This document shows, in pieces, positions 22,385 to 56,520 of a DNA stretch of 64,000 nt (the stretch's first letter is position 1; every line of letters begins with the position of its first letter). This DNA is from Obrimoposthia wandeli (lineage: Eukaryota), in assembly GCA_977020255.1 (NCBI GenBank), contig CDROCS010001673.1, forward strand, positions 310,001 to 374,000, written 5' to 3'. The position numbers and the translations under genes are program-made. The notes beneath the pieces are model-generated. The model was not told the DNA's origin, ran no database searches, and saw only the letters and a list, made by a program, of their open reading frames with translations.

Positions 22385-22804
22385 ATAGCACGAGCCTTTA
22401 CCAACTATTTAGATATTTTATGCTTTATAAGTGAGTTGACTTCTATGTAAGAAAATGAGAATTTTACATTTAATAGAAAAAAAGCTAAATAAAACACTTA
22501 ACAAAATATAAGTAGAAACTATCTAAAATTCTGATTTTCAGTAGGTATTAACTTTAAAAGTATTTTAGAAATCTTTATAATTAAACAAACTTGAAGTGTA
22601 TATGTTTAAAATTGCGGATTGTTAAGATAAAAGCTAAATGACAGTATAAAATATTTATCAATACAACAAATTCATTATTAATTTTAATGAAAAAATAAAT
22701 TTTACAAATAAAAGGTTGTTTGGATATTCATTGAAAAGTTTTAAAAAATTCAAATTGTCAATTTCTAGTGTAAAGTTTTTTTTCTTTAGAAACAATCATT
22801 TATA

Positions 22805-23146
22805 ATGTTAACCGTTGTGAAATTGAGTTTAGCTTTATCAAGGCGTCTATTAATTCGTAAATTAATAAATATATTGCGATTTATTAGGGTTTTAGTTCCA
22901 GTTCGTGGACTTAGTTTGTCGCAGACGCTCTGCATCGAAGAAAAGAAAGAAGGAAATGAGTTCGAAGATAAATTCCGACGTGTAGTACCAAGAATGCTAT
23001 ACGAGCCGGTAACTGTGGATGAGAGTATAAACTATATGGGGTCAGATGCATACTTTCAAACGTACAAAGGCAAGCCGGTTTGGTTCTACTACCGTCGGAA
23101 CTTCAAGGGTCAAATGCCGCCATCACTAAATCGAAAGAATTGCACG
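22805..23146 (+). CDS. MRPS18B: Mitochondrial ribosomal protein S18B (mS40), exon 1
   Basis: Arg-rich presequence-like N-terminus; ESINYMGSDAYFQTYKGKPVWFYYRRNFKGQMPP...RKNC matches the mS40 Y..S..Y...YG..PVW..YRRN.KG..PP motif; phase-0 donor GTGAGA at 23147. Confidence 0.9.
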
Positions 23147-24419
23147 GTGAGAGGATCAAACCTGTCTTGTAACATTATAAACTGCAATTGGGATACTTAT
23201 TTAACCAAAATGAGCGATTTAAAGTTGTGCACTGACACTTCTTTGTGTTATCGATGGAAATACCATTACAGCAATTGTAAGGACCTTAACCTGATTGTTT
23301 TGGTTTAGATCTGCTCGATAGTTGATCACCTGCAGAAATTGTAGACAAAAAGTGCATCTAAATTCGCTTTTGTATTGAACACTGAAATTCGCATCAATTT
23401 TTGAGTAAAGTATCTCTTTCCTTTGGTATTGCGGTTGACGCCGAGGAAGATCCAACAATGTGCTCATGCATTCTTCAATTTACTTCTTTCTCATCTGGAA
23501 ACATATTACTCAACATTAGATTTAATACAGCATCAATTTATCGATAATCGTTGTCATTATTATTCAAAGAAGCTCCACAAATCAGCAACTTTGAGTAGTT
23601 AACTGCAGCTTAATTGTAAACAGAAACATTTTGCGATGTCTGAATTCTTCTATATTTTTACACTTTCTCTCTTTTATTGTCAAACTATAAACACAGTCTT
23701 CTTTCTTCTATGAAGATCTTTGAATTGCCAGTTCTCTATTATCGTTATTTCTTCTTATTTTACTTGATCTTGAAACATCGGTTGGAGACACTTTCAAACT
23801 ATACATTTTGAATGAATAAAATGATTTTATACTCTATTCGAACATTTATTGGCAACTAATATAGTTAAAATGTACAGTTCTTCGGCCCTGTTTTATTTTC
23901 TAGATCTAGTTCATAATTACTTGTAATCTGTCTAGGTAACGTTGTTTAAGATTGTATAATTATTCTTTGTGGAAGGGGCCTACAAGTGACAATAGCATTC
24001 ATTCGACAAGGTTAACATGGGAATCCATATAAAGTTTTTATCAAGTATCAGTTTCAAAATTTTGAATGCATCTTTTGTATAGATCTCATCGTTACTGACC
24101 TTAATGTAGTTTTCTAACTGTGATAATAACTTTAAGGAATAAGGAAAAATTTCAATGTTTAAAAACATTAATAGATGAATAATTAGTTCTATTTGTTAGC
24201 CTAGATTTTTCCCTGTGTAATTCTTTACTTCACACTAACTTCCTATAAGATAATTATCTGTAACTCCGTCACATTTGAAATGAATAACATAGTCGAGACG
24301 ACTTCAGGGCTGTATTTGTATTTTAAAATTCCTAAAAATCTTTTAAAATATGCAGTATATGGGAATTTAATTGAAAACATATATGATGAGACTTTACACG
24401 CCCTCGGCTTCCAATGCAG

Positions 24420-29764: not shown

Positions 29765-31487
29765 TGTTGATTCTCCTTAGTCATCAAAGTAAAAAAAAAT
29801 TATCTCTAACTTTGTATTTAAACTCTTAAACAGCACCTATAATAACTCCATTAACTAAAATAACCAAACATGCCTAAAAATCACATTAAAAACTCCATCT
29901 TATCTTGCCTCTTTCAGTCTCTTATACAAGGGAGGCTCCACAAATCTGGTCCATACAAACGGCAGCATACTGTTGCCAAGCCAAAGATCAATACAATATT
30001 GATCTTGGCTAAAATAATTATTATAGCCCGCAATGGCTTAAAACTACTCAAATTACGTTTCTCCAAGATGCATGAACTTTTTGTAATAATAATTCTTCAA
30101 TGTTATATTGGAATTTTTCCAGTATCCCTTTAACATATATCTAAATTGAAGAAAAATCCTTTAAACACAAATTAAGAGTTAATGATTACAACACATATTA
30201 ATACAATTTTAATTTTTAAAGGTTTATCATGTGTACTTTTTATTTAAATGTTATTAAATGACTGTGTTTACTTCATCAATAAAATTAATCAGCTCAAGAA
30301 GACTATAAAATTAAACTAACCAATGAGAGTTGATGAAGTGTTTCTAGAAATATTTAAGGATATAACTATATTCCTAAGCAAAACATATTTAGTCAAATTT
30401 AAATTATAAAGGTTATCATGTTTACTTTATATTTTAATATTATTAAAGAAAATTTGTTTCGTCGCACAAATAAATTAATTATCTCAAGAAAAATATTTTA
30501 TCTCATTTTTTATTAAACTTATAAGTTTCTTAACAGCTGCTCCGGGACCCCCTTGCAGTAAACCCACTGCCACTCATCACAAAGAATGCAACCCACTCTC
30601 TTTAAGGCTAAATAAAACATATCAGATTGAAAACATCAAGGTAAATTAGGATTGATTATAGATTCTGCCATGCATGAGTTCTAAAAGTGAATTAGGAAAA
30701 TTAGGTAAATTAGGATTGATTATAGATTCTGCCATGCATGAGTTCTAAAAGTGAATTATTTATAAGTAAAGCTGGGTTTATTTGACATGTAGATTCTATA
30801 AAGGAAAATTAGGGTTGATTATTGAGAATTTATACATGAAAGTCAGAAGTGAAATTAGGGTGAAATATGTCTGCTATATATGAGTCTCAGACGGGAAATT
30901 ATTGATACGTTATATTTAATTCAGTTTCAAAAAGAAAATAATAGAAATAAGTTGTATAAGAGTACATTTTAGTAAGAAAATATTAGTAAATAATTGCATC
31001 TACGTAGAGAATGAAATTGTATAAAATAAATGCTTACCTGAAAATGGCTATATTATTGTATGTATTTATTTGATCAATAGTTATATATTCACATATTATC
31101 CTTATTCAAAGTAATATTCGAGAATAATAATATTTAATGGTTGGTAATTTAGATTGATAATTATACAGTTTACCTGTAAATAAATATTACAAGAACAGTT
31201 TATTTGGAAAACTACTTAACCAAGTTGTGATTTTATAGATTATGCAACAGAAGGATATAAGGTATAAAATTATGAGATGTATAGACATTTATTAATAATA
31301 ATTCTTCAATGTTATATTGAAATTTGTCCGGTACCCCTTTAACATATATCTATATTGAAGAAAAAATCATTATACACAAATTGGAGCAAGTATTACACTC
31401 CAACTAGATTCATTAGTTTTGTTTATTAAACCTGAGTAGGTGGAAGGATGGAGTCTAGACCACTTGACCCCCCCCCTAAAGGGTGAC

Positions 31488-31588
31488 ATACCATAAGGAT
31501 GTCTCGCCACACCATAAGGGTATATGTTGCCTCACCTTCGGTGACCCAACATATACCCTTATGGTATGGCAAGACACCCTTATGGTAT
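31488..31588. other. About 100-bp subterminal palindrome (hairpin), left TIR
   Basis: ATACCATAAGG...CCATAAGGGTATATGTTG-cc-TCACC-ttc-GGTGA-cc-CAACATATACCCTTATGG...CCTTATGGTAT. Confidence 0.92.
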
Positions 31589-32589
31589 AAACTTTAGGAG
31601 GAGGCAGGAGGCAGGGAGGGAGGGGTAGCGGGGAGGGGTCAAGTGATCTAGACTCCACCCTTCCTTTGGCTATAATCTATGGTTGTCCATAGTTTAAAGG
31701 GTCAATTGGCTTAGTCTCCACCCTTCTTTTTGTGATATACCACTATGAAAGGGTCAATTGGCTTAGTCTCCACTCTTCTTTTAGTGATCTAGTCTCCACC
31801 CTTCTTTTTGTGGTCTAGTCTCCACCCTTCTTTTAGTGATCTAGTCTCCACCCTTCTTTTTGTGGTCTAGTCTCCACCCTTCTTTTTTGTGATCTAGTCT
31901 CCACCCTTATTTTTGGTTAACCACTAATTCAAAGGATCAAGTGGCTTAGTCTCCACCCTTCTTTTTTTTTGTGATCTAGTCCATAATGAAAATTTATGAT
32001 AAAGTTCACACTTAACAATTAAGAATGTATGACGTAATCATACACACACTATTTTATGTGAAAATTTAGGATAAAGTTCACACTTATCAATTAAGAAATG
32101 TGGTTTTTAACACACACATACACTATTTTATGTGAAATTTAAACTAAAGTTCACTCTTATAAGTTAATGAATGTATTACGTAATCACACACATACTATTT
32201 TATGTGAAATTTAGATCAAAGTTTTTCCTAGGCTTTCACATTTATAGAATTATGATAAAATTTCTTTAAATAACTTCAATTATATATTAAAATAAAAAAT
32301 AAAATAAGAAAGAAGTCAGAGAATAATACAAAATTAAACACATTTATTATGTAATTTCATAATATCATCTTCAAACTTAAGTGAATAACATTTACAAAGT
32401 AAGAAAGTCCATTCTTTATACATTCTTTTCGTTTCAACGACTAAGTTACAACGGAATTAATAGAAAATTAGTAAAAATATTAATTTATTTGAATATTTGA
32501 ATGAGAGTTTGAATAAATGAGAGGTAGAATGAATGTAAATGAATAAAATTATGCATGCAAGTATGAATGTCATTTACAAGTAAGAGTCT

Positions 32590-33175
32590 TAGCAAGTGAA
32601 TGTAATTTTAAAAATAAGAGTGTCGATAGTTTGATTGAATGCAAGTGTAATTTAGACTATAAGTAAGTAAATTAAAATAGAGTTTTTGTTGAATAAATTA
32701 TAGTTAGATTGAATGCAAGTATGACGAGCAAGTGATTGATAGTTTGAATTTTCAATACAAGTAAGTGGGTTTAGCAAGTGAATGTAATTTTTTTAAAATA
32801 AGAGTGTCGATAGTTTGATTGAATGCAAGTGTAATTTAGACTATAAGTAAATTAAAATAGAGTTTTTGTTGAATAAATTATAGTTAGATTGAATGCAAGT
32901 ATGACGAGCAAGTGATTGATAGTATGAATTTCAATACAAGTAAGTGGGTTTAGCAAGTGAATGTAATTTTAAAAATAAGAGTGTCGATAGTTTGATTGAA
33001 TGCAAGTGTAATTTAGACTATAAGTAAATTAAAATAGAGTTTTTGTTGAATAAATTATAGTTAGATTGAATGCAAGTATGACGAGCAAGTGATTGATAGT
33101 ATGAATTTCAATACAAGTAAGTGGGTTTAGCAAGTGAATGTAATTTTAAAAATAAGAGTGTCGATAGTTTGATTT
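32590..33175 (-). repeat. 179-bp satellite, about 3 copies (left arm)
   Basis: Reverse complement of the 36628-41990 unit. Confidence 0.9.
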
Positions 33176-33439
33176 TTTAAATTACTTGATTTTTTTTTGC
33201 CATTGTCCGTTTAATATAATATGAATATTCAATTTATTTCTTCAAAAATTCATTTTATATGTTAAATAATATTCTTTATCACATTATTGTGGTTTTTATC
33301 AAGTGATTTTAACCTTAAACTATAAAAAATATTTTAATTATAAAGTTAGTTGCTGTACCCCGCCCACTGCATATAACATAAATTTCAAATATAAAGTACT
33401 ATTAAGTTTATTATTTCGAATAGTAAATGTTTTTCGAGT

Positions 33440-34760
33440 TATTTAATTTTGTTTACTAGACATTCGAAAATTTACTTGTAAACTACAATATTTATTTGTT
33501 GTTGTATATATTTAGTTTAAAATGTTGTAAGTTATTACTTTAATATAATTTTCAACAAAAACTTCAAGTAATTTACTTGTAAACTACAATATTTATTTGT
33601 TGTTGTATATATTCAGTTTAAAATGTTGTAAGTTATTACTTTAATATAATATTTCAACAAAAACGTCAAGTAGTTTACTTATTAAACATAAGTTTAATGT
33701 TTTGTACAATAAATTGACTTGTAAACATAATATAATTTGCATATTTTCAATTTAATATATTGTAAGTTATTACTATAATATTACATTACATAAAAAAGTA
33801 ATTGATAGTTTACTATCGTTTACAATAAATTGACTTGTAAACATAATATATTTATGCATATATTCACTTTAATATGTTGTAAGTTATTACTTTATTATAA
33901 TTTTCAACAAAAACTTCAAGTAGTTTACTTGTAAACTACAATATTTATTTGTTGTTGTATATATTCAGTTTAAAATGTTGTAAGTTATTACTTTAATATA
34001 ATTTTCAACAAAAACTTCAAGTAGTTTACTTATTAATCATAATATTAATGATTTGATCAATAAATTGACTTGTAAACATAATATAATTTGCATATTTTCA
34101 ATTTAATATATTGTAAGTTATTACTATAATATTACATTACATAAAAAAAGTAATTGATAGTTTACTATCGTTTACAATAAATTGACTTGTAAACATAATA
34201 TATTTATGCATATATTCACTTTAATATGTTGTAAGTTATTACTTTATTATAATTTTCAACAAAAACTTCAAGTAGTTTACTTATTAAACATAAGTTTAAT
34301 GTTTTGTACAATAAATTGACTTGTAAACATAATTTATTTTGGTATATTTTTCAATTTAATATGTTGTAAGTTATTACTTTAATATAATTTACAACAAAAA
34401 CTTCAAGTAATTTACTTGTAAACTACAATGTTTATGTTGTTGTATATATATTCAGTTTAAAATATTTGAGTTAATAAACTTTAATATAATTTACAACAGA
34501 AATCTTCAAGTAATTTACTTATTAATCCTTTTTAATGATTTGATCAATAAATTGACATAAACATAATATAATTTGAATTTTTTAATTTAAATATATTGTA
34601 AGTTAATACTATAATATTTCATTACATAAAAGTAATTCATAGTTTACTGTCGTTTACAATAAATTGACTTGTAAACATAAATTTGATACAGTATATTTTC
34701 GATTTAATATGTTGTAAGTTATTACTTTAACATAATTTACAACAAAAACTCAAAATGTTA
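33440..34760. repeat. AT-rich tandem array of diverged ~110-125-bp units (AAATTGACTTGTAAACATAA core)
   Basis: The core recurs about 7 times; a short inverted counterpart lies at about 36040-36330. Confidence 0.8.
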
Positions 34761-34826
34761 CTTTATACAAGTATCATGTTGTGGTTGGATTTAGGGTTAT
34801 AATCTGAGCATTGAATATAAAATATA

Positions 34827-34828
<2 letters not shown>

Positions 34829-34891
<63 letters not shown>

Positions 34892-34897
34892 TATATA
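34829..34897. repeat. (TA)n microsatellite
   Basis: Visible directly. Confidence 0.95.
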
Positions 34898-35790
34898 ACA
34901 TTAGCTGCACAGTTATATGTTAAATTAACTTGGTTATTGTTATAACAGTTTTTATTTAAAAAATATATATATAATAATAATAATACAAAACTGATAAAAT
35001 ATATTAAAATGAATATACCATAACTCTGGTTTACCTGATGTTTCGCCAAAACTCTTCAAGATACTCATCATCTAGATTAGCCTTATACCATAATATTCAG
35101 CAATCTCTTCTCTGTTAATCCCATAACTGGGATAAGATTAGTAAGATTTCTCTCACATTCTCTCTGAAATGATAAAGTTAAATTAAAATAATACATTATA
35201 AATAAATATACTCATACCATATAGAATTCCAAGTAAATTATTACAAATTTTTTGTAATCATGAATTTTCCGATATAATTTTACTGAATGCAAGATCACTG
35301 TTTTTAACGGACATAATCATTAAACTTGATGGAGGAATGTTGTCGAATTATAACTACTTTTTCTGCTGTTAGTGCTTTTTTCACCATATTTTCGTAAGGT
35401 AATTTATTTAATTTAAGTTTATAGATAAGCCATTTTTGTTGTTGAACATCAGCATACTTCATAATTTAATTTGAACTTATTTTGAACATATAATAGAGCT
35501 TGTTTGTTTAATATTCTTCTTTGCACCTCCAACTATTAACCAAATTCTAATTAAATACTTTATTTCTTCTTCTTTATTAGAGTGCATAAATTATTTGTCG
35601 TGCTTCAACATCCTGGCAGACATCGTCATACATTTCTAGAAATTGCTGATCGATGATTTCATTCATTTTTCTTCATACTAATTTGTTGTTAATAGAATTA
35701 TTATAATTAATTATGATGTGCTATCAATGAATTATCTATTATTACAATATCCTGTTAATTATAATAAGTATAAAATACATTTACTTTATT

Positions 35791-35877
<87 letters not shown>
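35791..35877. repeat. (TA)n microsatellite
   Basis: Visible directly. Confidence 0.95.
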
Positions 35878-35879
<2 letters not shown>

Positions 35880-36627
35880 AATAATAAGACAAAAAGTAAG
35901 AAAACAATCCTAAATATCATAACAACCAAGATTAACACAGATAATATTAGTTAAGAAATTAATTTATCATTTTGGTCTAAAACAATGAATACCAAATCGC
36001 CTACAATGCATGTATAATTTTTAATTGTCAACTACAGTAAACTATAACATTACTCTTTATTATTACCATTAATAATGCCAATATATTAGTAAACATTTAC
36101 AAAATATAATCTGTTTACAAATTAATTTTATCATACAAATCCTTAAATTATGATTAATAAGTAAACTACTTGAAGTTTATTTATTGCTAAATATATTATG
36201 TTTACAAGTCAATTTATCGTACAAATCATTAATATTATGATTATTAAGTAAACTATTTGAAGTTTTGGTTGTAAATTATATTAAAAGTAATAACTTACAA
36301 CATATTAAAGTGAATATATGCAAATTATATTATGTTTACAAGTAAATTTCCGAATATCTAAACAAAATTAAATAACTCGAAAAAACGACTACTATTCGAA
36401 ATAATAAACTTAATAGTACTTTATGTTGAAATTTATGTTATATGCAGTGGGCGGGGTACAGCAATATATAATTAAATATTTTATAGTTTAAGGTTAAAAT
36501 CACTTGATAAAAACCACAATAATGTGATAAAGAATATTATTTAACATATAAAATGAATTTGCAGAAGAAATAAATTGAATATTCATATATTAAACGGACA
36601 ATGGCAAAAAAATATCAAGTAATTTAA

Positions 36628-39600
36628 AATCAAACTATCGACACTCTTATTTTTAAAGTACATTCGCACTTTAAACCCACTTACTTGTATTGAAATTCTA
36701 TTACTATCAATCACTTGCTCGTCATACTTGCATTACAATCTAACTATAATTTATTCAACAAATCTCATCACAATTTAGCATAGTCTAAATTACTTGCATT
36801 CAATCAAACTATCGACACTCTTATTTTAAGAATTACATTCACTTGCTAAACCCACTTGCCTTGTATGAAATTCATACTATCAATCACTTGCTCCGTCATA
36901 CTTGCATTCAATCTAACTATAATTTATTCAAATACAAAAACTCTATTTTAATTTACTTATAGTCTATTAAATTGCACTTGCCATTCAATCAAACTATCGA
37001 CACTCTTATTTTTAAAATTACATTCACTTGCTAAGCCACCCACTTACTTGTATTGAAAATTCAAACTATCAATCACTTGCTCATAATACTTGCATTCAAT
37101 CTAACTATAATTTATTCAACAAAACTCTATTTTAATTTACTTATAGTCTAAATTACACTTGCATTCAATCAAACTATCGACACTCTTATTTTTTAAAAAT
37201 TACATTCACTTGCTAAACATACTTGTATTGAAAATTCAAACTATCAATCACTTGCTCGTCATACTTGCATTCAATCTAACTATTTTATAATCTCTATATT
37301 CTTAACAAAATCTCTATTCGACCTTAATTTACTTATAGTCAAGCTATCAATCACTTGTCAATCATTACACTTATAATTTATTCAACAAAATCTCTATTTT
37401 AATTTACTTATAGTCTACAATTACACTTTACATTCAATCAAACTATCGACACTCTTATTTTTAAAAATTACATTCACTTGCTAAACACACATACATGTAT
37501 GTTGAAAATTCAAACTATCAATCACTTGCTCGTCCATACTTACATTCAATCTAACTATCTCATTTATTCAATAAAGATCTCTATTTACAATTTTCTTATC
37601 GTCTAAATTACACTTGCATTCAATCAAACTATCGACACTCTTATTTTAAAAATTACATTCACTTGCTAAACCCACTTACTTGTATTGAAATTCATACTAT
37701 CAATCACTTGCTCGTCATTACTTGCATTCAATCTAACTATAATTTATTCAACAAAAACTCTATTTTAATTTACTTATAGTCTAAATTACACTTGCATTCA
37801 ATCAAACTATCGACACTCTTATTTTTAAAAATTACATTCACTTGCTAAACACACATACTTGTATTGAAAATTCAAACTATCAATCACTTGCTCGTCATAC
37901 TTGCATTCAATCTAACTATAATTTATTCAACAAAAACTCTATTTTAATTTACTTATAGTCTAAATTACACTTGCATTCAATCAAACTATCGACACTCTTA
38001 TTTTAAAAATTACATTCACTTGCTAAACCCACTTACTTGTATTGAAAATTCAAACTATCAATCACTTGCTCGTCATACTTGCATTCAATCTAACTATAAT
38101 TTATTCAACAAAATCTCTATTTTAATTTACTTATAGTCTAAATTACACTTGCATTCAATCAAACTATCGACACTCTTATTTTTAAATTACATTCACTTGC
38201 TAAACACACTTACTTGTATTGAAAATTCAAACTATCAATCACTTGCTCGTCATACTTGCATTCAATCTAACTATAATTTATTCAACAAAATCTCTATTTT
38301 AATTTACTTATAGTCTAAATTACACTTGCATTCAATCAAACTATCGACACTCTTATTTTTTTAAAAAATTACATTCACTTGCTAAACACACATACTTGTA
38401 TTGAAAATTCAAACTATCAATCACTTGCTCGTCATACTTGCATTCAATCTAACTATAATTTATTCAACAAAAACTCTATTTTAATTTACTTATAGTCTAA
38501 ATTACACTTGCATTCAATCAAACTATCGACACTCTTATTTTAAAAATTACATTCACTTGCTAAACCCACTTACTTGTATTGAAAATTCAAACTATCAATC
38601 ACTTGCTCGTCATACTTGCATTCAATCTAACTATAATTTATTCAACAAAATCTCTATTTTTTAATTTACTTATAGTCTAAATTACACTTGCATTCAATCA
38701 AACTATCGACACTCTTATTTTTAAAAATTACATTCACTTGCTAAACACACATACTTGTATTGAAAATTCAAACTATCAATCACTTGCTCGTCATACTTGC
38801 ATTCAATCTAACTATAATTTATTCAACAAAATCTCTATTTTAATTTACTTATAGTCTAAATTACACTTGCATTCAATCAAACTATCGACACTCTTATTTT
38901 AAAAATTACATTCACTTGCTAAACCCACTTACTTGTATTGAAAATTCAAACTATCAATCACTTGCTCGTCATACTTGCATTCAATCTAACTATAATTTAT
39001 TCAACAAAATCTCTATTTTAATTTACTTATAGTCTAAATTACACTTGCATTCAATCAAACTATCGACACTCTTATTTTTAAAAATTACATTCACTTGCTA
39101 AACACACATACTTGTATTGAAAATTCAAACTATCAATCACTTGCTCGTCATACTTGCATTCAATCTAACTATAATTTATTCAACAAAATCTCTATTTTAA
39201 TTTACTTATAGTCTAAATTACACTTGCATTCAATCAAACTATCGACACTCTTATTTTAAAAATTACATTCACTTGCTAAACCCACTTACTTGTATTGAAA
39301 ATTCAAACTATCAATCACTTGCTCGTCATACTTGCATTCAATCTAACTATAATTTATTCAACAAAATCTCTATTTTAATTTACTTATAGTCTAAATTACA
39401 CTTGCATTCAATCAAACTATCGACACTCTTATTTTTAAAAATTACATTCACTTGCTAAGACACTTACTTGTATTGAAAATTCAAACTATCAATCACTTGC
39501 TCGTCATACTTGCATTCAATCTAACTATAATTTATTCAACAAAATCTCTATTTTAATTTACTTATAGTCTAAATTACACTTGCATTCAATCAAACTATCG

Positions 39601-41990
39601 ACACTCTTATTTTAAAAATTACATTCACTTGCTAAACCCACTTACTTGTATTGAAAATTCAAACTATCAATCACTTGCTCGTCATACTTGCATTCAATCT
39701 AACTATAATTTATTCAACAAAATCTCTATTTTAATTTACTTATAGTCTAAATTACACTTGCATTCAATCAAACTATCGACACTCTTATTTTTAAAAATTA
39801 CATTCACTTGCTAAACCCACTTACTTGTATTGAAAATTCAAACTATCAATCACTTGCTCGTCATACTTGCATTCAATCTAACTATAATTTATTCAACAAA
39901 ATCTCTATTTTAATTTACTTATAGTCTAAATTACACTTGCATTCAATCAAACTATCGACACTCTTATTTTAAAAATTACATTCACTTGCTAAACCCACTT
40001 ACTTGTATTGAAAATTCAAACTATCAATCACTTGCTCGTCATACTTGCATTCAATCTAACTATAATTTATTCAACAAAATCTCTATTTTAATTTACTTAT
40101 AGTCTAAATTACACTTGCATTCAATCAAACTATCGACACTCTTATTTTAAAAATTACATTCACTTGCTAAACCCACTTACTTGTATTGAAAATTCAAACT
40201 ATCAATCACTTGCTCGTCATACTTGCATTCAATCTAACTATAATTTATTCAACAAAAACTCTATTTTAATTTACTTATAGTCTAAATTACACTTGCATTC
40301 AATCAAACTATCGACACTCTTATTTTAAAAAATTACATTCACTTGCTAAACCCACTTACTTGTATTGAAAATTCAACTCTTATTTAAAAATTACTATCAA
40401 TCACTTCAATCACTTGCTCGTCATACTTGCATTCAATCTAACTATAATTTATTCAACAAAAACTCTATTTTAATTTACTTATAGTCTAAATTACACTTGC
40501 ATTCAATCAAACTATCGACACTCTTATTTTAAAAAATTACATTCACTTGCTAAACCCACTTACTTGTATTGAAAATTCAAACTATCAATCACTTGCTCGT
40601 CATACTTGCATTCAATCTAACTATAATTTATTCAACAAAATCTCTATTTTAATTTACTTATAGTCTAAATTACACTTGCATTCAATCAAACTATCGACAC
40701 TCTTATTTTTAAAAATTACATTCACTTGCTAAACCCACTTACTTGTATTGAAAATTCAAACTATCAATCACTTGCTCGTCATACTTGCATTCAATCTAAC
40801 TATAATTTATTCAACAAAATCTCTATTTTAATTTACTTATAGTCTAAATTACACTTGCATTCAATCAAACTATCGACACTCTTATTTTAAAAAATTACAT
40901 TCACTTGCTAAACCCACTTACTTGTATTGAAAATTCAAACTATCAATCACTTGCTCGTCATCCTTGCATTCAATCTAACTATAATTTATTCAACAAAAAC
41001 TCTATTTTAATTTACTTATAGTCTAAATTACACTTGCATTCAATCAAACTATCGACACTCTTATTTTAAAAATTACATTCACTTGCTAAACCCACTTACT
41101 TGTATTGAAAATTCAAACTATCAATCACTTGCTCGTCATACTTGCATTCAATCTAACTATAATTTATTCAACAAAATCTCTATTTTAATTTACTTATAGT
41201 CTAAATTACACTTGCATTCAATCAAACTATCGACACTCTTATTTTAAAAAATTACATTCACTTGCTAAACCCACTTACTTGTATTGAAAATTCAAACTAT
41301 CAATCACTTGCTCGTCATACTTGCATTCAATCTAACTATAATTTATTCAACAAAAACTCTATTTTAATTTACTTATAGTCTAAATTACACTTGCATTCAA
41401 TCAAACTATCGACACTCTTATTTTAAAAATTATATTCACTTGCTAAACCCACTTACTTGTATTGAAAATTCAAACTATCAATCACTTGCTCGTCATCCTT
41501 GCATTCAATCTAACTATAATTTATTCAACAAAATCTCTATTTTAATTTACTTATAGTCTAAATTACACTTGCATTCAATCAAACTATCGACACTCTTATT
41601 TTAAAAATTACATTCACTTGCTAAACCCACTTACTTGTATTGAAAATTCAAACTATCAATCACTTGCTCGTCATCCTTGCATTCAATCTAACTATAATTT
41701 ATTCAACAAAATCTCTATTTTAATTTACTTATAGTCTAAATTACACTTGCATTCAATCAAACTATCGACACTCTTATTTTAAAAAATTACATTCACTTGC
41801 TAAACCCACTTACTTGTATTGAAAATTCAAACTATCAATCACTTGCTCGTCATCCTTGCATTCAATCTAACTATAATTTATTCAACAAAATCTCTATTTT
41901 AATTTACTTATAGTCTAAATTACACTTGCATTCAATCAAACTATCGACACTCTTATTTTTAAAATTACATTCACTTGCTAAGACTCTTAC
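36628..41990 (+). repeat. 178-180-bp satellite array, about 30 copies (right arm)
   Basis: ATCAAACTATCGACACTC recurs at 37801, 37980, 38158... Confidence 0.97.
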
Positions 41991-42970
41991 TTGTAAATGA
42001 CATTCATACTTGCATGCATAATTTTATTCATTTACATTCATTCTACCTCTCATTTATTCAAACTCTCATTCAAATATTCATATAAATTAATATTTTTTAC
42101 TAATTTTCTATTAATTCCGTTGTAACTTAGTCGTTGAAACGAAAAGAATGTATAAAGAATGGACTTTCTTACTTTGTAAATGTTATTCACTTAAGTTTGA
42201 AGATGATATTATGAAATTACATAATAAATGTGTTTAATTTTGTATTATTCTCTGACTTCTTTCTTATTTTATTTTTTTATTTTAATATATAATTGAAGTT
42301 ATTTAAAGAAATTTTATCATAATTCTATAAATGTGAAAGCCTAGGAAAAACTTTGATCTAAATTTCACATAAAATAGTATGTGTGTGATTACGTAATACA
42401 TTCATTAACTTATAAGAGTGAACTTTAGTTTAAATTTCACATAAAATAGTGTATGTGTGTGTTAAAAACCACATTTCTTAATTGATAAGTGTGAACTTTA
42501 TCCTAAATTTTCACATAAAATAGTGTGTGTATGATTACGTCATACATTCTTAATTGTTAAGTGTGAACTTTATCATAAATTTTCATTATGGACTAGATCA
42601 CAAAAAAGAAGGGTGGAGACTAAGCCACTTGATCCTTTGAATTAGTGGTTAACCAAAAATAAGGGTGGAGACTAGACCACAAAAAGAAGGGTGGAGACTA
42701 GACCACAAAAAGAAGGGTGGAGACTAGATCACTAAAAGAAGGGTGGAGACTAAGCCAATTGACCCTTTCATAGTGGTATATCACAAAAAGAAGGGTGGAG
42801 ACTAAGCCAATTGACCCTTTCATAGTGGTATATCACAAAAAGAAGGGTGGAGACTAAGCCAATTGACCCTTTAAACTATGGACAATCATAGATTATAGCC
42901 AAAGGAAGGGTGGAGTCTAGATCACTTGACCCCTCCCCGCTACCCCTCCCCTCCCCGCCTCCCGCCTCCT

Positions 42971-43097
42971 CCTAAAGGGTGTCATACCATAAGGGTGTCT
43001 TGCCATACCATAAGGGTATATGTTGGGTCACCGAAGGTGAGGCAACATATACCCTTATGGTGTGGCGAGACATCCTTATGGTATGTCACCCTTTAGG
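42971..43097. other. Subterminal palindrome (hairpin), right TIR
   Basis: Inverted copy of the left hairpin; pairing extends to CCTAAAGGG/CCCTTTAGG. Confidence 0.92.
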
Positions 43098-45760
43098 GGG
43101 GGGTCAAGTGGTCTAGACTCCATCCTTCCACCTACTAACCTGCATTATATTCAATAAGTATCCATATATCTCTGTAATCACATTTTATTATTTTCCTAAA
43201 TAACTTCCAACATAGGCCTAACCCTAGTTTTATTTATATTCCAAAGTCTTAAATCAGATGAATTTCTCGAGACTTGGCTTGCTCTGCTGTTACTGTCCGA
43301 GGCTTGTTCGAGGCTCGATTAATTTCTTGAGACTTGTGAATTTGTGGCCCTTCATCCAATGTGAGGCATCCAATCGACTTACACTGTCGATAAATCCACC
43401 CGAGTTATGGTGGTGCTGTTGAATACCTCTAGTGACTAATTATGTCACATAATTTATATTATTGTTTTTCCACTAGCCAAATCCACTGTGTGTCTGTGGT
43501 GCCTCAGGTGACTCGATTAGTAATAGAGTTAGAGGTCCCCTGAGGTTAATTAATCCCTCATTTTCAATCACGGAGTTTATTAATCTCCTTTTTTGTTGTA
43601 ATTTTGTTCTTTTAATTTAATTATTTTTTATATTCAGATTGCTAAAATGTCCTTGGCCAGGACTATAAATATTTTCAGTTATTTTAATTAATCAGATAAA
43701 ATCGTCCATTTCTAAACCTTAACCGAATCAAAGAAGGAGAACCAGATGATTGAAACAATTCGAGAAAGTTTGAAGTAGTCAATGGAAGGGAAATATCAAA
43801 GTAGAAAAGAGGCAGCGGGAATTATAATATGTGAAGACAATAATTGAAAAATTAGAAGGAAACAAAACTGAGTTGGAAGTAATGCATGCATTTATGAAAA
43901 TTTATCATGGTTTTGTTATGGACCAAGCGGTTATTAAATTAGGGTGGTTAAAAAATGGTGTAAGACTTTATTATGATCAAAATTTTTTATTCAAGTCAAA
44001 CAGTCACTGGAAGCATCAAATGGTACAAAGGTATTAATCTGTTAGGATTAGGATTTGATAAATATTAAATAATTGTTCTAATTTATATCAAAATAAAAGC
44101 CTTGAAAGCAAGGTTATAAATTAAATAAAAAATTGTATTATTAAATTAAATTAATAAAATTAAGACGGGAATTAAATATTAAGGACCACGAAGGTCATGT
44201 GTGATGTGCAGGTATATAAGGATTTTAAAAAGAATAATTAAAGGCCCCTAAAAAAGAAAGAGTTAATCGAAAGAAGTATTTAGTCCCGATTAAAAGGACT
44301 AATTAAAGAAAATTAGTAGATAAGTGCACTCGCGGAATCAGGACCAGCCGTTATCAATTTGAGCATCGTTCGATTAGCTAATAGCACGTGTGGAATCCGT
44401 ACCAGCAGTCATCAATTAGAGCATTGTCCACGAAGCCCTAAAGGAGGTAAGTGCACTTAATAATCAATTTTAAGTGATTAAAAGCTTTTGTTTGCAGAGT
44501 AGAAGTCGGGTTATCTGCTATACACGACAAAGCAATTAATTCAGACCAAAATCATCCGAGAAAAAGAGAGAAAAGTAAATCTCAAATACTCAATTTTAAG
44601 TGATTAAAAGCTTTTGTTTGCAGAGTAGACGACGGAAAATTTGCTATATAAGACAAAGAAATTAATTGAGACAACACAACAAATCCGAGAAAAAGAGAGA
44701 AAGTCAGTCGTTCAAGCCAAATTAGAAAACTCGTCGATATAAACCGAGTACAATAACAGAAGAATACAAATTGAGCACAGTAACAGAAGAATACAAATTG
44801 AGAACAGGTAATCAATTTGAAAACTCGTCGATATAAACCGAGTACAGTAACAGATCGGAGAACCAGAACCCTCTCACAAAACAACCCTACCAACACTCCA
44901 ACCGGAACGAAAACCGCTCCGTGAATCGACAACAGGAGAAGATCCGGGACAGCACTATCTACACCTCGCGGCGCCTCAAAAATCAGTGACAGCAGTCGGA
45001 GCGGAAACGGAACGAGTCTGCCCAACGGTATCAGATCAACGCAATCAAATAATCTCTGCGAAGGACGGTAAGAATAATTGCCTCATATCATACATAAAAG
45101 GAGAAACCGAATATTTTGATAAAATAAGAATAATTGCCTCATATCATACATAAAAGGAGATACCGAATATTTTGATAAAATAAGAATAATTGCCTCATAT
45201 CATACATATAAGGAGAACCCGTATATTTTGAGTAAAGTTTTGAGTCTTATATAAAGACTAAGTTGAGTAAAGATTTAGAGTAAAGATTTTGAGTCTTATA
45301 TAAATACTAAGTTGATTAAAGTTTTCGAGTAAAGTTTTTGAGTCTTATATAAAGACTAAGTGATTAAAGTTTTCGAGTAAAGTTTTTGAGTCTTATATAA
45401 AGACTAAGTTGATTAAAGTTTTCGAGTAAAGTTTTTGAGTCTGATATAAAGACTAAGTTGATTAAAGTTTTCGAATAAAGTTTTTGAGTCTTATATAAAG
45501 ACTAAGTTGAAAGAAGTTTTGAATTGAATTTTGTTATAACCCATACCGATAAGAAAGTATATTCCTATTTTGGAGTGGTTACAATAGCTAAAATCGATCC
45601 CTATTTTTAGAGTAAAGACTCGAGCGACCAATCAACCCTAAATTTAAAATCGATACGTGGATCATCCCCACTTGTATAGAGACTTACAGAAGTCTTAGGA
45701 ATTTTATTGTAACTTTTTAGAAATACGTACTTAAACGTATTAATCCGTGTTAGTCTAGTG

Positions 45761-46778
45761 CAGGGGTGGGGAACCTGCGGCCCTGAGGCCGCATGCGGCC
45801 TCCAAGCTCATCAACTGCGGCCTCCTATAAGAATAATAATTTTAAATAATTATGTAATATTAAATAATATTTCAAATTGAATTAAGAAACAATAATTAAA
45901 TAATATTTCAAATTGAATTAAGAAACAATAATTAAATAATATTTCAAATTGAATTAAGAAACAATAATTAATTAATAATTAATAATTAAGTAATTAAATA
46001 ACTATTTCATTTATAAATTAATTAATCATATTAAACTACGAATAGCAAACGTTGTCAAAATGAAATACGCATAAAGAATTATATTTACTATAGATCTCCA
46101 AATAAACGGAAGTAGTTTAAAAAAACGAAATGAAGGCAGTTTTTTGAATCTTAAATAAATCTTAGTTTCGTAAATTATTATTTCACTAACACTATTAATC
46201 AATAATTTATGTTTTCAGATTAAATAAATATATTAGTTAAACACTTTCCCCAGTTGACAAAAATAAATAATGAATATGAAGAGTATAACTGTGAATCTTT
46301 CGAATCATACGAATCTGTTTTAGACTCATTAATCAAAGAATACAATGAAAGATTCATTGATTTTGAAAAGCATGATATCACCCTGAAACTAGCTTTTCAA
46401 CCTCACTTAGTTGATGTATCAAAGGCACCAGAATATTTACAAATGGAGCTTATTGAGTTATCTGAAGATAATATTCTGAAATCTCTGTTTCTTAGTAAGG
46501 AAGATCCCGTTGAAATTTGGAAAAAAGCGGTAGAATACCCTCGCCTTCGCGAACATGCTCGTCGATTGATTTCGTGCTTTTCTACGACATACTGTTGTGA
46601 ATCCACATTCTCACATTTAACAAATATCAAAGATTCGTTGAGAACACAGATGACAGATTAGCATCTGGAAGACCAATTAAAACTTAAAACCTCCATGTTA
46701 GAACCCGACATCAAAATGTTGTCTCACAAGAAGCAATCTCAAAGAAGTCATTAAATTATTAAAAAGGTAAGTGAATAA
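45761..46778 (+). mobile_element. hAT (Charlie/SPIN-like) transposon fragment: left TIR plus transposase C-terminus
   Basis: CAGGGGTGGGGAACCTGCGGCCC terminus after GTCTAGTG; coding part listed separately; no right TIR. Confidence 0.85.
46254..46754 (+). pseudogene. hAT transposase C-terminal dimerisation domain
   Basis: LQMELIEL...YPRLREHARRLISCFSTTYCCESTFSHLTNIKDSLRTQMTD*HLEDQLKL...KKQSQRSH*. Confidence 0.9.
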
Positions 46779-46979
46779 CTAGTGTGTTTAATAATAAACG
46801 ATTTCCTACAACTAGAAAGCATTGTTCTAAACCCTTTAGATCAAGACAAAACAACAAACCTTCAGATAAGAATTGAGACAGGCAAGCATAACATTAAGTA
46901 GGCCACAACCATCTACAAGTCCTGCTTCTATAGAACTCACGTTGGGGCCCTTCATTTAAATCCCCGACTATTTGAAATA

Positions 46980-48198
46980 ATGACTATGGTAAGAATCTAT
47001 ACTTATTATTTCTTTATTAATATTTATTATTTCAGATTACTTTTATCCTGTTTCCAGCATATTGTGGTGCTTCGGCTCCGCATGGAGGAGAGACCTGCAT
47101 GGAGGAGAGACCTGCATGGAGATAATGTCCGCCTACTATCGGACAAAGTCTCGCGGGCTTCACTTCTTCGTCTGCCCCTTCTGTAGAACAATGGAGGAGA
47201 AGGAGTTTCGAGACTTCTTCGGTGAACATCGAGCTCATCTATCCTGTTTCACGGCCAACAACAAGAAGGGGGATATTGTGCAATTGGTGCGCGATTCGCA
47301 GGCCGCTCCAGCACCTGCTCCAATTACAGTTGCAGTGATTCAACCCGTTTACGGTCCTGCTATTGGTCCTTCTCGCCCGGCTCCTGATTCTGCTGCACCA
47401 TCCACTCAAATGACTAACAATGAGTGGATGAATGACATCTCCCAGGAAGATTTTGAGGAGATGGCACCAGCAACCCAATTCTCAAACAATGACTGGATGG
47501 AAAATATCACCCAGTCAGATTTCGAGATGGAGCAGCCTCAGTGGAGCGATAGCTCCAGGTTGGAGACCATCGAGGAATCCGATTTCGTCGAGATAACGGA
47601 CGACAGCTGGATGGATTCCATCAATGAAGAGGACTTCATTCCAGCTCCAGTTGGATTGCCTTCATTAGGTATTTTTTATTATTATTTTTTAAAATTGTAA
47701 TATATATATTATTGTAATTATATATATTTTCTTTTTATTTTTTATTCAGGAAGTACCGTGATACAATCGTCATCCGCTACGGCAGCTATGCCTCCCCCAT
47801 CACGAGTGACTACATCGATGTTAGCACGTCTTAGAGGTAATAATATTTAAAAATATATTTATTTTTTAATATATTTTTCAGCATCATGTTCTACAACAGC
47901 CGCTTCTTCGTCGGCAAGATCAGCTTCTACCATTCCTACTCCTACTTCAAATGCAGCCTCTACAACTGCCACTGTCTCATCATCTTCGGCAGCATCTATT
48001 ACAGCAGCATCGTCTACACCAGCTGCGATTGGCTCAACATCGGCAGCATGTCCAATAGCAGCACCTTCCACCTTAGCTGCGTTTGTGTCAACTGTTAATA
48101 TAAATAGTTGTCTTCCCGTTCAATTAGGGGGGGGTTTGTCAGCGATTGTAGGAAGAAAGAGGCGAGACCAATTTCTTAATAAGGTAGAGAATAAATAA
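46980..48198 (+). pseudogene. Spliced 5' extension of the PolB locus: Cys/His (RING-like) segment, acidic W-containing repeats, Ser/Ala/Thr-rich linker
   Basis: GT-AG introns 46989-47035 (phase 0), 47669-47749 and 47837-47881 (both phase 1) give one frame once a 17-bp duplication (47081-47114) is removed; ends PVQLGGGLSAIVGRKRR. Confidence 0.7.
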
Positions 48199-48585
48199 AC
48201 GTAGAGAAAACGGTGCTACTATAGAGTATCACCTAAATAATAAATATGTTATAGTTAATGTGCCATTAGGAAATAAAATTTTATTAAACGTAGGTGTAGA
48301 TTCAAATATTGGAAATCTTTTAAAATCAGAAGTGACTAAATTAGGACAGGCTAAGGTTCAATTTTGCGCAACAGTGCAGTTTAAAAATGTCAATGAGGAA
48401 ACTAAAACTTGGGTAATTTTACATAAAGCAACTGTTTTTTTATGATAATTTTGTAACTGAAATTGGAAGAAACCTGGATGAAAAAATTGTTAATTATAGC
48501 GAGTTAAGTAGTGGATGGACTTTAGTTAGAATTCACGATGTTAGCTTTGTTCTAACAAAGTTCATTGACATGATATATCTTTCAA

Positions 48586-48616
<31 letters not shown>

Positions 48617-51274
48617 AAAAATATAATACTGATATCCCAGTTAATGTAACAAATGAAGAAAATTTTAAAAATCCTTTTGTAGATGTAATTTATAGGAGCA
48701 AAAATGAGGGGACTCAGGTCAACTTAATTTTGCACGAACATAATAAAAAATTCCATTATGCTGCAATTGCCAATTAAGATCGTCTTCTAAATTTAGATAA
48801 TGGAGCCTTACCGGTTAGGATAAGATGTAAGTGGTGTCATAGATGTTTGCATGGATTCCGATCCGAGCTCTCTTACAGCAAACATCTGACATTATGTTCA
48901 CTGAATCCTGATGACAATACGCTATACATCATGCCTAAGGATAAGGATTTAAAATTCAGGGATTGGGCAAAATGCATACCCGTGGAATTCAGGGTGCATG
49001 CAGATTTTGAGTCAATTTTAGCATTGCACGACCAGTATGAAAGCATTCACCTACCGGCTTCGGCAGGACTACTATTCTTAGGCCCTATTATTACACAATA
49101 TCATAAATTTTCCGGTCCAAATTGTATTTTAAATTTTATGTTAAAATTAGAAGAATTAGGAACAACAATTGTCAAACCGTGGTATGATCTCAATGATCAT
49201 GACAGGCATAGACTGGGTTAATTTTAATTCTTGTAGATTATGTTATTTGTGTGGAACCCAGTCTAAGTTAGTCAGATATCACGATCATGTTACGGGGCGA
49301 TACTTGGGAGCGGCGTGCAACCTCTGTAACCTTGGCCGTCGTCTCCCTAAAAAACCACGAATTCCCATCGTGTTTCATAACCTCAAAGGATATGATTTGC
49401 ATCATATACTTAAATACGCGTTGGGTACATTAAGCTCTTGGGAAATTTCATGTATACCTCAAACTTCAGAGAAATATTTATCTTTAACTGCATATACTGA
49501 ATTCTGCAGTTTAAGATTCATAGATTCTCTGCAGTTTTTGAGCGGGTCTTTAAAAAATTTAACGGCATCTTTAAATGCATGGCCAATTACACAGTCAGTG
49601 TTCCCAGCTTCGGTTAACGATAAGGGGATTTTTCCGTATAAATTTGCGAAAACTTTCGCAGATTTAGAAAATACAACTGAAATCCCACCCATAACTGAAT
49701 TTGAGGGTGTAAGTCTTCAAGACTATAATGAGGCCCGTACATTTTGGGTGAATACTTGTCAAAATCTTCTTGAATATATGCTTTATTATATGAAGTTAGA
49801 CATTTATCTTTTAGCTGATGTTTTTGAATCCTTTCGTGTAATGTCTTTAGCAGAAGATGGGCTAGATCCCATGCATTTCTTTAGTTTACCTGGTCTTTCA
49901 TGGGCAACAGCAATAAAAACTCTTAAAATTAATATCGAGTTACTGCAAGATCCCGCGATGTATCAAATGTATGATTATGGTATACGCGGTGGAATGACTT
50001 TTGTCAACAAACATCATGTTGTCAAAAATCAATCCACGGAGATTCTGTACATCGATATTAATAATTTGTATGGGTGGGCGCTTACTCAACCTCTACCTCA
50101 TGCTAACTTTAAGTGGGTTTATGATGTGGATCAGTTGAATAAGTTGATGACAGACTTGGCTACTGTTGATACAGTTTCATCCGACGTCGGCTATTTGGTT
50201 GAGGTGGACATAAAAATTCCTCTCAATGTGCATGATAAATTAGATGATCTTCCAGTAGCGCCTGTTCATCAATGCCCACCTAATTCAAAGGTTAAGAAAT
50301 TATTGTTAACCCATGAAGACAAGTTGAATTATGTTGTGCATTGGCGGCTTCTTCAATTCTACTTAAAGTTGGGAGCGAAAGTTACTCGAATTCATCGTGC
50401 TATAAGCTTCAGTCAAAATTTTGTGTTTAAAGACTATATTGAGAAGAATTCAAGAAAACGTAATTTGGCCACTAGCAAATTCGATCGAGATTTTTACATG
50501 TTAAAAAGTAATAGTATCTTTGGAAAAACTGTAGAGGACTTGCGGAAACGTATTTGTCTACGATTTTGCAATGATGAGCGTAAACTAATAACATATACTA
50601 GCAAGTACAACTTCAAGCGTAGTTTTACAATTGCAGATGACTTGGTAGCAGTGTTATTAGGAAAACAGAGTATTTGTCTCGATCGACCGAGTTATATAGG
50701 TCAAACGGTTTTAGACATTTCTAAACTCAGAATGTATGAGCTTCAATACATAGAATTGGAGAAATACCGTCAAGAATTTAATTGTGAGATCAAAATCGCG
50801 GCAGGGGACACTGACTCTTTCTTTTTAGAATGTAGGAATGTTAGTTTAAATAATCAATTATTACCAGCAATGTTTAGGGACAACTTACTAGATACCCATA
50901 AATATCCCGCTAACCATCCTCAACACTCTATGAGTTTAAAGGACATTATCGGGAAATTTAAGGATGAAAGCGAGGGACAGGTTTCGTATGATGATTGTAT
51001 TTTCCTACGCCCTAAATGCTACAGTTTACATGCATCTAATAATACATGTTCAATGAGAGCAAATGCTGTGGGAAGAAACAATCTTACACATGAGGCCTAC
51101 CGGAAAGTTTATGATACTGGGTGTATTGAAAGCGTTGAGCAAACTAGATTTATTTCAAAAGCCCATCAACTGTATTCCCATAAATCAACCAAAATCGCTT
51201 TGAGTAGTAATGACGACAAGCGCTTTTGGGTAGAAAAGAACGCTAGCCTGGCTTATGGACACTTCAAAATTTAA
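48199..51274 (+). pseudogene. polB: Protein-primed family B DNA polymerase (pPolB) with an endonuclease VII-like C/H insert; N-terminal third frameshifted
   Basis: SSGWTLVRI; HYAAI; C.RCL.GF...H...C; RVHADFES; CYLCG...YHDHVTGRYLGAACNLCNL; VFHNLKGYD; YIDINNLYG; KSNSIFGK; AGDTDS; RPKCY. Confidence 0.95.
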
Positions 51275-51540
51275 ACGGTTTTCATTTTTTGATTTTTTTA
51301 TTTTAGTTTTTTTTAAATTTTAGATCCCTATGGCACCTAGACTCTAACTTATTTGTTATTTCAATACTTTTTTAGGATGGACCTTATTTATTATTCCTTA
51401 TCTTTGCTGACATATCTCATTGTGATGTTGTGATTAATAAATGTATTAAAAAAAAATTGTCTTATGTCTTTTATTATTTTACCCTTAAATTTTAGAGATT
51501 TAAAAAATAATTCAAAATAAAACATTTAAAATTTTTATTT

Positions 51541-52822
51541 TTATAACACACTAATCGTTTTGCAACGATAACCATAAAAAACATAAATGTCCACAGTTTC
51601 TCGTCGCAGGATCCTGATATTGTATCTTGTTGTAAAATACTCTTCTTCGTCCTTTTTGAATAGTTGAAACAAGTTTGTGTGGATAATACATTGCAAGTGA
51701 ATCAAATTAGATCCATCCTTGAGTAGTTGACATTGGTTTATATCAAAGTCTGGTGCCAAAACAAATGTGAAGAAGGGGCAGCTTCTTTTAAAGTCAGTGA
51801 AATAAATACCATTGTTTATATTTTTATTTAGTTGGCCCAAATTCCGAATAATATATTGCGTATAAGCCAAAGCATAAGCATTACCTTCGAAATCTGTTTT
51901 ATATGTTTCGCGATAATCAGTATTTCTTGAAAGTGTCACTGAACCTACATTAAGATTGTCAAATTGAGTTGCATCTGTCGTATAATTTCCTAGATACTTT
52001 GCAGTTTTTTGAAAAGAAATTAAAATGAACTTCGGTAATCTTACATCACCAAAAATTTGATCCTTATTAAAAGCTTGTGTACCCGTACCTAAAAAGTAGG
52101 ATATAAGTTTAGTTTCTCTAATAGGATAACAAGCATTGTTTTTTTCCATTCCTATATTATGTGCCATTAAAACTGATTGCTCGGTTTTAACTCTTCGGAC
52201 ATACAATTTTGCATCCAAAATATCAAATCTAGGTTTTAGTCTGTGTTCTTATGAAAGAAAAATTCCCCTTATTACGTTTCAAACGAAGATGTACATTAAC
52301 ACCGGGAATTAAATATTTCGGTTGTTCAAAGAAATTCAATCTCAAAGACCCACACATTTCGTAAGCTTTAGAACCTGCAATCCATTCTTTTCGAGTTGCG
52401 ACCGTTTTATCATAACCAATGGTTGCCAAATTAGTATTTTGAGTATCAGTACTATAATTCAAAATACTTTCAATCAAAGCTTTATGAGGATAGGAAGAAT
52501 TACCACCTTCAATTTTGACATTTTTAAGAGTAACAATGGCATCACTAAATAAAAAATTAAAGAGATAATTTACAGGTGTTACATCTGCATTTTCATCTAA
52601 ATTAGTACCATCCCGATTTAATACTTTTATTTGAACATAAAGCAATGTATCATTCAAATCTAAATACTCGCTATTGGAACCATTAATATTAAATTCTAAA
52701 TCGATTAAAGTGGTTCCTGAAACAGAGTTAACTAGAAATATTTCTTCAAAGGAAGCATTATCTACAACTACTTGTGGATGTGGTTTATCAAAAATACACA
52801 ATTCGGTTTTGGTGCATCTCAT
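51541..52822 (-). pseudogene. Polinton major capsid protein (double jelly-roll, PY/hexon-like), frameshifted near 52225
   Basis: CTKTELCIFD.P.PQVVV...LEFNINGSNSEYLDLNDTLLYVQIKV; GSLRLNFFEQPKYLIPGVNVHLRLKRN; FFTFVLAPD. Confidence 0.9.
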
Positions 52823-53196
52823 TTTGCAAATATTGTTCCTTCAACTTTCTTACGTTTGTTTATATTGATTTTTTGCTTCTTTTTACTTTTAAATCCACTA
52901 CCTCCTTGGCTTCTATTTGATTTACGCTTTCTAATCAAATTAGCAACTTCAGGTAAAACATTATCAAGTTCATCAAGCGCATGCTTCTTAAAAGTTGGTA
53001 TTAGTTTGTTGTCCTTTGATGAAAGGTAATCCTTTCCTAATTTTGATATAAATCGCCCGAGTCTCTTTAAAAGAGGAAAGGCAAATCTACCTAATGTTCT
53101 AAGCCAGCCAAATCCATATTGTTTACCAACAAAATATGGTAATTCTCCACCTTGTTGGCTTTGACTATAAGCTTCAATTATTGCTGGATTCGCCAT
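52819..53196 (-). CDS. Conserved small basic Polinton virion protein upstream of MCP
   Basis: QQGGELPYFVGKQYGFGWLRTLGRFAFPLLKRLG: a QxGG...GxG-amphipathic pattern of the kind typically found just upstream of Polinton MCP; intact ORF. Confidence 0.7.
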   Translation of the reverse strand: MANPAIIEAYSQSQQGGELPYFVGKQYGFGWLRTLGRFAFPLLKRLGRFISKLGKDYLSSKDNKLIPTFKKHALDELDNVLPEVANLIRKRKSNRSQGGSGFKSKKKQKININKRKKVEGTIFAK

Positions 53197-54239: not shown

Positions 54240-54253
54240 ATTATATTAGATGC

Positions 54254-55302: not shown

Positions 55303-55330
55303 ATCTTTAACTGATTTTATAAATAATTGT

Positions 55331-56483: not shown

Positions 56484-56520
56484 TGCATATACTCTTTCAT
56501 TTTTAATATTGTTTATATTA

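Follow-up and report, generated by a model that had tools for sequence, protein, structure and literature searches.

A gene-less 11.7-kb foldback element with Polinton-like ends and 178-bp tandem arrays in its arms in Obrimoposthia wandeli

What kind of mobile DNA is built as a multi-kilobase mirror image, carries tandem arrays in both arms and codes for no recognizable protein? The question is raised by an element in the genome of Obrimoposthia wandeli, within a 64,000-nucleotide stretch (hereafter the window) of contig CDROCS010001673.1 (positions 310,001 to 374,000, forward strand; assembly GCA_977020255.1). The element occupies 31435-43136 of the window (11,702 bp), begins with AGTAGG and terminates with CCTACT. 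The initial annotation had described AGTAG...CTACT ends and an exact 6-bp target-site duplication (TSD), and both are present, as AACCTG flanks the element directly on the left (31429-31434, + strand) and on the right (43137-43142, + strand). Among 11 repeat lengths tried (2-12 bp) only 6 bp fits, the repeat never exceeded 2 bp when the ends were moved inward by 1-7 bases (7 placements), and the probability of any 6-bp match by chance is ~6e-4. Of 1248 AGTAG/CTACT pairs, 2 have a 6-bp repeat; the other one (887/50363) lacks an inverted repeat and was dismissed as chance. The element is thus real, a gene-less mirror-image (foldback) DNA inserted with a 6-bp target duplication, and it looks young.

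The multi-kb inverted arms of the initial annotation were borne out by alignment. The left arm (31435-34897, + strand; repeat and inverted alignment), which extends from its AGTAG terminus as far as the first (TA)n tract, is 3.4 kb long, and the right arm is 7.3 kb. Over their outer 1126 bp, the arms share 1097 matches (of 1110 aligned positions), with 13 mismatches and 11 gaps, one of them at the alignment end; these differences lie mostly within a purine tract and one swap of a 26-bp/52-bp unit, and the inverted similarity runs further inward to reach AT-rich arrays and the (TA)n tracts. From outside to inside, each arm consists of a terminal hairpin, 26/52-bp repeats, a 72-bp repeat in three copies (left x3.1, 31990-32213, + strand; right x3.2, 42349-42582, - strand; from the Tandem Repeats Finder (TRF) repeat table), unique AT-rich DNA, a 178/179-bp array, a ~290-bp unique link, an AT-rich modular array and (TA)n. 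By arm alignment, the left link (33175-33467, + strand) pairs with 36350-36627 (- strand), which is noisier or more diverged than the outer arm (8 mismatches and 11 gaps over ~300 bp). Long modular terminal inverted repeats (TIRs), internal tandem repeats of variable number and a gene-less middle place the element in the foldback class as defined in PMC4079207.

The tips of both arms are highly structured. A hairpin of ~225 nt begins 7 nt from each tip, and on the right (42904-43129, - strand) it folds as DNA with -82.8 kcal/mol (z -13.5), a stability equaled by 0 of 200 shuffled sequences. For the left hairpin (31442-31664, + strand), -67.0 kcal/mol was obtained with a slightly shorter stretch folded. 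A 14-bp motif that fills positions 10-23 at either end has 19 matches in the window against 0.07 expected, 10 on the left and 9 on the right; all lie within 530 bp of the arm tips, with 0 elsewhere in the window. A 9-bp motif occurs 8 times against 0.35 expected, every time within the two terminal hairpins; the left hairpin contains four copies of it along with two of the 14-bp motif. The adjoining 26/52-bp repeats, delimited by TRF and motif search, are themselves inverted copies of the 14-bp terminal motif (left, 31712-31960, - strand, 8 copies; right, 42609-42872, + strand, 7 copies). Hairpin and multiplied motif are candidate sites for helper-protein binding or for an origin, both as hypotheses.

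Further inward lie the arrays that gave rise to the idea of a satellite nursery. The initial annotation had counted about 3 copies of a 179-bp unit on the left versus about 30 on the right, in close agreement with the 3.4 copies (32560-33174, + strand) and ~30 copies (36627-41995, - strand; 5.4 kb) of a 178/179-bp unit found here by TRF and alignment. TRF divides the right array into 3.7 and 25.7 copies, and 29 full monomers are bounded by 30 anchors. Mean identity is 98.3% over 23 of these 29 monomers, with R01-R05 and R21 excluded as irregular. A deletion and a substitution are common to R02, R06, L1 and L2, i.e., inner monomers of both arms, while two linked substitutions at monomer positions 51/55 are found in the right arm only (R05, 07, 10, 12 and 14, and one of the two also in R09), as is a substitution at position 99 (R24, 27, 28 and 29). 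Because two variants are common to both arms and others are right-only and arranged in blocks, the left and right arrays descend from a common ancestor and then diverged. Irregularity marks the right inner arm (36340-37620): the five innermost monomers (R01-R05) have 5-18 differences each, many of them private indels, versus 0-4 in 24 of 24 later ones, so that the exact length of the right array is provisional. No copy of the unit was found elsewhere in the 64-kb window. A motif pair beside the neighboring Polinton (59554-59581) resembled it, a likeness that was rejected when 32 of 200 shuffles scored equally well; kinship between the 178/179-bp unit and the AT-rich array was weak, with a score reached by 16 of 500 shuffles, and was not used. 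"Nucleosome-sized", as applied to the 178/179-bp unit, is a statement of length only.

The AT-rich arrays are asymmetric in the opposite direction. The left one (33468-34780, + strand; 17% GC; TRF and comparison) spans 1313 bp and the right one (36090-36349, - strand; comparison) 261 bp (0.26 kb), in line with the ~1.3 kb and ~0.3 kb claimed initially; the simple ~120-bp unit proposed for them did not hold, as modules of ~100, 40, 117 and 95 bp are combined within a higher-order unit of ~352 bp. The inner ends of the arms are a (TA)38 tract on the left (34822-34897) and a (TA)43 tract on the right (35790-35876), both from TRF. Between them lies an unpaired spacer (34898-35789; 25% GC) that is bounded by (TA)n as annotated and measures 892 bp (1055 bp including tracts), not ~1.2 kb.

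The initial annotation had also recognized no genes, and we found none: the element (31435-43136) has no open reading frame (ORF) of ≥120 aa, no Pfam family scored above cut-off in any of the six frames of the spacer (X at stops; one sub-threshold match, Orf78, E 0.1), and an Rfam scan of the whole window returned 0 matches. The longest ORF wholly within the spacer is ≤54 aa. The spacer had 0 tblastn matches in the rest of the window, and one of its six frames had 0 among 1.84 billion proteins. By eye, one intron-like GT...AG stretch was seen on its minus strand. A 52-aa spacer piece (35307-35462) returned XisH look-alikes only (0.86-0.88, <170 shared features) and is a lead at best; a ciliate-type code for this frame was dropped, as TGA interrupts it too and its stop density is that of random AT-rich DNA.

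Public sequencing data place the element in a large family. Its left half was found in 5 public runs, none of them an RNA run, and 4 of these contain 63-65% of the sampled words. All four derive from a single sample, which may be the one that was assembled. Read contigs of four runs (X1-X3 from this same sample and X5, a marine metagenome) were placed on 29900-32555. Summed contig depth in X1-X3, which according to the tool is no copy number, stayed at 0-85 across the 17 bins of the flank, where a unique contig of 399 bp had a depth of 3.2, and reached 1.9e4-5.5e5 in each of the 13 bins that follow from 31413. The contigs placed per run numbered 32,556-37,916, equal to 0.43-0.48% of all records. 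Loose ends just before 31435 comprised at least 39 contigs in X2 and at least 32 in X3 (none in X1 among the rows listed), and they back the AGTAG terminus. Their agreement was merely 0.40-0.43, and therefore many different flanks meet one end at 31435. Because depth jumps at the arm and many different flanks join 31435, the element belongs to a dispersed family of very high abundance. That this family has subfamilies is shown by dozens of variant sites, by repeat-number joints and by an extra segment that some copies carry at ~32364 (32363-32365); in other copies the terminal-hairpin modules differ at 31500-31536, and loose ends behind 32544 indicate that other copies continue differently where the array starts. 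A rough estimate for X1 that corrects for contig overlap by a factor between 31, the worst case, and 1.6 puts the ends at 950-18,400 and the inner arms at 3,900-75,000, from which we roughly infer at least hundreds of elements and probably thousands of copies. X5 contributed 17 contigs, which fell on 7 of the 30 bins. Depth over the outermost, GC-rich 250 bp (31413-31679) was ~3-20x lower than over the inner arm (31680-32555), for which library bias, variable tracts and inner modules common to more families are candidate causes.

The initial annotation took the element for a non-autonomous Polinton derivative. Its mobile, gene-less and dispersed character is upheld by the TSD, the many flanks and the depth, while Polinton origin is likely only, through the TSD and the ends. 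Vertebrate Mavericks have 6-bp TSDs, (AGT)2//(ACT)2 or (AG)3//(CT)3 ends and TIRs of 46-1447 bp (PMC8097293; the definition used for comparison also draws on PMC8969392). The present element combines a 6-bp TSD, AG...CT ends and long TIRs, and its AGTAGG//CCTACT ends share 5 of 6 bases with the (AGT)2//(ACT)2 motif. The host genome does contain Polintons: ~4 kb downstream of the element lies a decayed one (46993-59447; Pfam and ORFs), split into partial frames, with pPolB (PF03175, E 3e-26), an rve integrase (E 4e-12), an A32-type ATPase (E 9e-6), a RING gene and a double-jelly-roll capsid protein, the last below the curated cut-off. Its polymerase has 1279 relatives, the closest 55% identical, and its gene order tracks that of a metagenome locus (L001). 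On this basis, the element is probably a foldback that cannot move by itself and parasitizes Polinton/Maverick elements.

Several observations weigh against this assignment or against the abundance attached to it. In comparisons with the window Polinton, L001 and contig word searches, no coding element (pPolB/integrase) sharing the ends was seen, and the rule used by Repbase for non-autonomous elements asks for equal TSD length and alignment of positions 1-11 to a coding element (PMC4455052). No inverted ends of the decayed Polinton were found within the window, and when compared with six segments of the element it gave low-complexity AT matches only and none to the spacer in protein space. 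Scans for ends of related Polintons yielded 0 loci in three viral-contig scans and one locus (L001), itself without ends, in one metagenome-contig scan. The terminal 29-mer had 0 matches in metagenome contigs and the terminal 24-mer 0 in viral contigs, and the terminal 556 bp matched none of 50,697 phage records. The AGTAGG end is one base off the published motif, and the TSD length is known from a single copy. Published Mavericks of vertebrates are low-copy (median 8, top quoted 287; PMC8097293), foldback elements are mostly ascribed to Mutator or P (PMC4079207), and an Anolis study noted that non-autonomous Polintons were apparently absent (PMC3014272). The abundance itself is drawn from summed depth in X1-X3, a single sample.

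The element shares 6-bp TSDs, AG...CT ends, long TIRs and a length of >10 kb with Polinton/Maverick elements (PMC8097293, PMC3014272). Unlike autonomous members, it has no pPolB, integrase, ATPase, protease or capsid genes, it carries arrays in its arms, and these arms (3.4 and 7.3 kb) exceed the 46-1447 bp of Maverick TIRs, as its abundance far exceeds the published 1-287 vertebrate copies (PMC8097293). Coding Polintons only are described in the accessible parts of PMC6431247 and PMC8969392, and ~236 copies of Polinton-1_DPe, most of them full-length, lie on a Y chromosome (10.1101/2021.06.02.446622). Polinton_CE_TIR of Caenorhabditis elegans is similar as a Polinton TIR that occurs apart from complete coding elements and is tied to rearrangements, but consists of low-copy remnants of a 744-bp TIR, not a high-copy palindrome with arrays (10.1101/2024.01.15.575659).

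In architecture, the closest likeness is Tetris of Drosophila virilis, which is gene-less, has flanking, variable tandem-repeat and inner domains around a middle, and whose helper was not found; its tandem unit is AT-rich (220 bp), and its long-array repeats are more uniform, as in the present element (PMC4079207). Tetris differs in its 8-10-bp TSDs, TIRs of ≤1735 bp, three complete copies and ascription to Mutator, and its unit was shown in free arrays and became a satellite, whereas the unit described here is known within the arms (PMC4079207). Likewise, the CDSTR177 unit of Galileo in Drosophila koepferae (~177 bp, ≤82 tandem copies) lies inside a foldback, but derives from the central segment, not the arms, of an element whose transposase is known (PMC13553610). 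A route from foldback arm to satellite is therefore already described with Tetris (PMC4079207), and TIRs are named as a satellite source in a review whose available text does not mention Polintons (PMC12628747). For the present element, the satellite-nursery step is plausible by analogy. Full-text searches of the literature, which covered neither most subscription papers nor Repbase (a collection with non-autonomous Polinton entries), revealed no foldback that is at once gene-less and high-copy and combines Polinton ends with satellite arrays.

Three other explanations have to be considered. The element could be a classical foldback moved by the cut-and-paste transposase of another superfamily (Mutator, as for Tetris and FB; P, as for Galileo; or a less common one whose TSDs are 6 bp), its subterminal motifs being transposase-binding sites. 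The succession of flanking, tandem-repeat and inner domains around a gene-less middle is indeed the Tetris layout, and multiplied binding sites in TIR repeats are known from Galileo (both PMC4079207), to which the 19 terminal motifs conform. Here, however, 6 bp is the only TSD length that fits, as opposed to the 8-10 bp of Tetris (PMC4079207), so that the element does not match a Mutator type, and shifting the ends inward to TAG...CTA abolishes the TSD; we consider this explanation unlikely. Very high copy number, which is usual in non-autonomous cut-and-paste elements, speaks for it. TSDs in the P superfamily are 7-8 bp, and other families with 6-bp TSDs (IS3EU, some hAT, Dada) have different ends or no TIRs.

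Alternatively, the 178-bp unit may be a pre-existing host satellite that was captured, making the element a carrier instead of a nursery, which would suit either mobilizer. Capture and in-place amplification are recognized alternatives (PMC13553610), and the loose ends behind 32544 show other copies to differ at the array start. Conversely, the unit occupies the same place in both arms, and the arm just outside it is composed of the unit's own short CAAGT-type words, with which these loose ends also start, which fits growth from arm sequence; capture thus appears doubtful, if the most serious of the three alternatives. Least probable, in our view, is that a real element owes its 5.4-kb array length and reciprocal asymmetry partly to misassembly where long reads prone to error traverse a giant hairpin. 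The irregular inner monomers and noisy link of the right arm would be expected under such an artefact, although real satellite arrays are often more diverged at their edges. The 23 regular monomers are highly alike, with variants in ordered blocks and an alternation of two units, as in real arrays, and an amplification fold-back chimera is excluded by the ends, the TSD and the different flanks, since it would have mirrored the flank too.

For the probable Polinton parasite, a snap-back model can be drawn from established Polinton and adenovirus biology. The protein-primed DNA polymerase of a helper would prime at the AGTAG ends, and after strand displacement the released single strand could snap back over its long arms, restoring a duplex end; such repair would keep the outer arms nearly identical. 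The helper's retroviral-like integrase would then join the ends to the target with a 6-bp stagger. The hairpin and multiplied motif might let the parasite compete for helper proteins, and the self-complementary (TA)n tracts at both inner arm ends may have been the template-switch turning points that made the mirror form. Tandem units in the arms would gain or lose copies independently through slippage or unequal exchange, and each transposition would move an array to a new site. We put forward tentatively a further possibility, in which a gene-less parasite of an endogenous virus arose by snap-back of a Polinton end, its copies within a single genome number from thousands to tens of thousands, and its arms are both source and vehicle of a dispersed 178-bp satellite.

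Other features of the window touch the element less directly. The decayed Polinton includes an accessory gene with an AT-rich intron (~47000-47750) and three copies of a 160-bp repeat (58240-58721), and adjoins a hAT remnant with a dimerization domain (45761-46780; PF05699). Introns, together with the LTR, hAT and Polinton remnants, would point to an AT-rich animal as host. L001 has, at 13242-13405 and 13500-13987, a pair of neighboring AT-rich hairpins (74 and 90 nt) and, behind them, a frame resembling by eye a ubiquitin-conjugating enzyme. Two acidic ORFs of 140 and 199 aa (592-1614, - strand), the longer with a repeated YIDL-type motif and no Pfam match, may represent an accessory gene from a different virus-like element. 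A frame at 22790-23308 (+ strand) recalls mitochondrial ribosomal protein S18B, of which we take it to be a fragment; a homolog search gave 0 of 22 candidates. At 17250-17680 (+ strand), a short frame judged by eye is rich in Cys at its start, includes a hydrophobic stretch and has a tail rich in Gln and Pro; it resembles a small membrane protein. Other minisatellites are found at 60365-61028 (38 bp x17.5), 4122-4542 (35 bp x12), 11367-12160 (34-63 bp) and 45069-45522 (49-56 bp), several of them adjoining dispersed repeats that resemble long terminal repeats.

Polintons have been reported as large, coding and mostly low-copy elements, and foldbacks as derivatives of Mutator or P. If this very abundant, gene-less foldback does bear Polinton ends, such virus-like elements can be parasitized on the scale of miniature inverted-repeat transposable elements, and the parasites could explain many megabases of a genome otherwise annotated as unknown repeat or satellite. 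Should the satellite proposal hold as well, satellite DNA would have arisen directly out of a viral origin of replication. The ends of the element would isolate the cis signals (AGTAG end, hairpin and repeated motif) needed for protein-primed copying and integration. Multi-kb inverted repeats present by the thousands are substrates for rearrangement, and copies with varied array sizes offer a natural series for timing the growth of satellite arrays.

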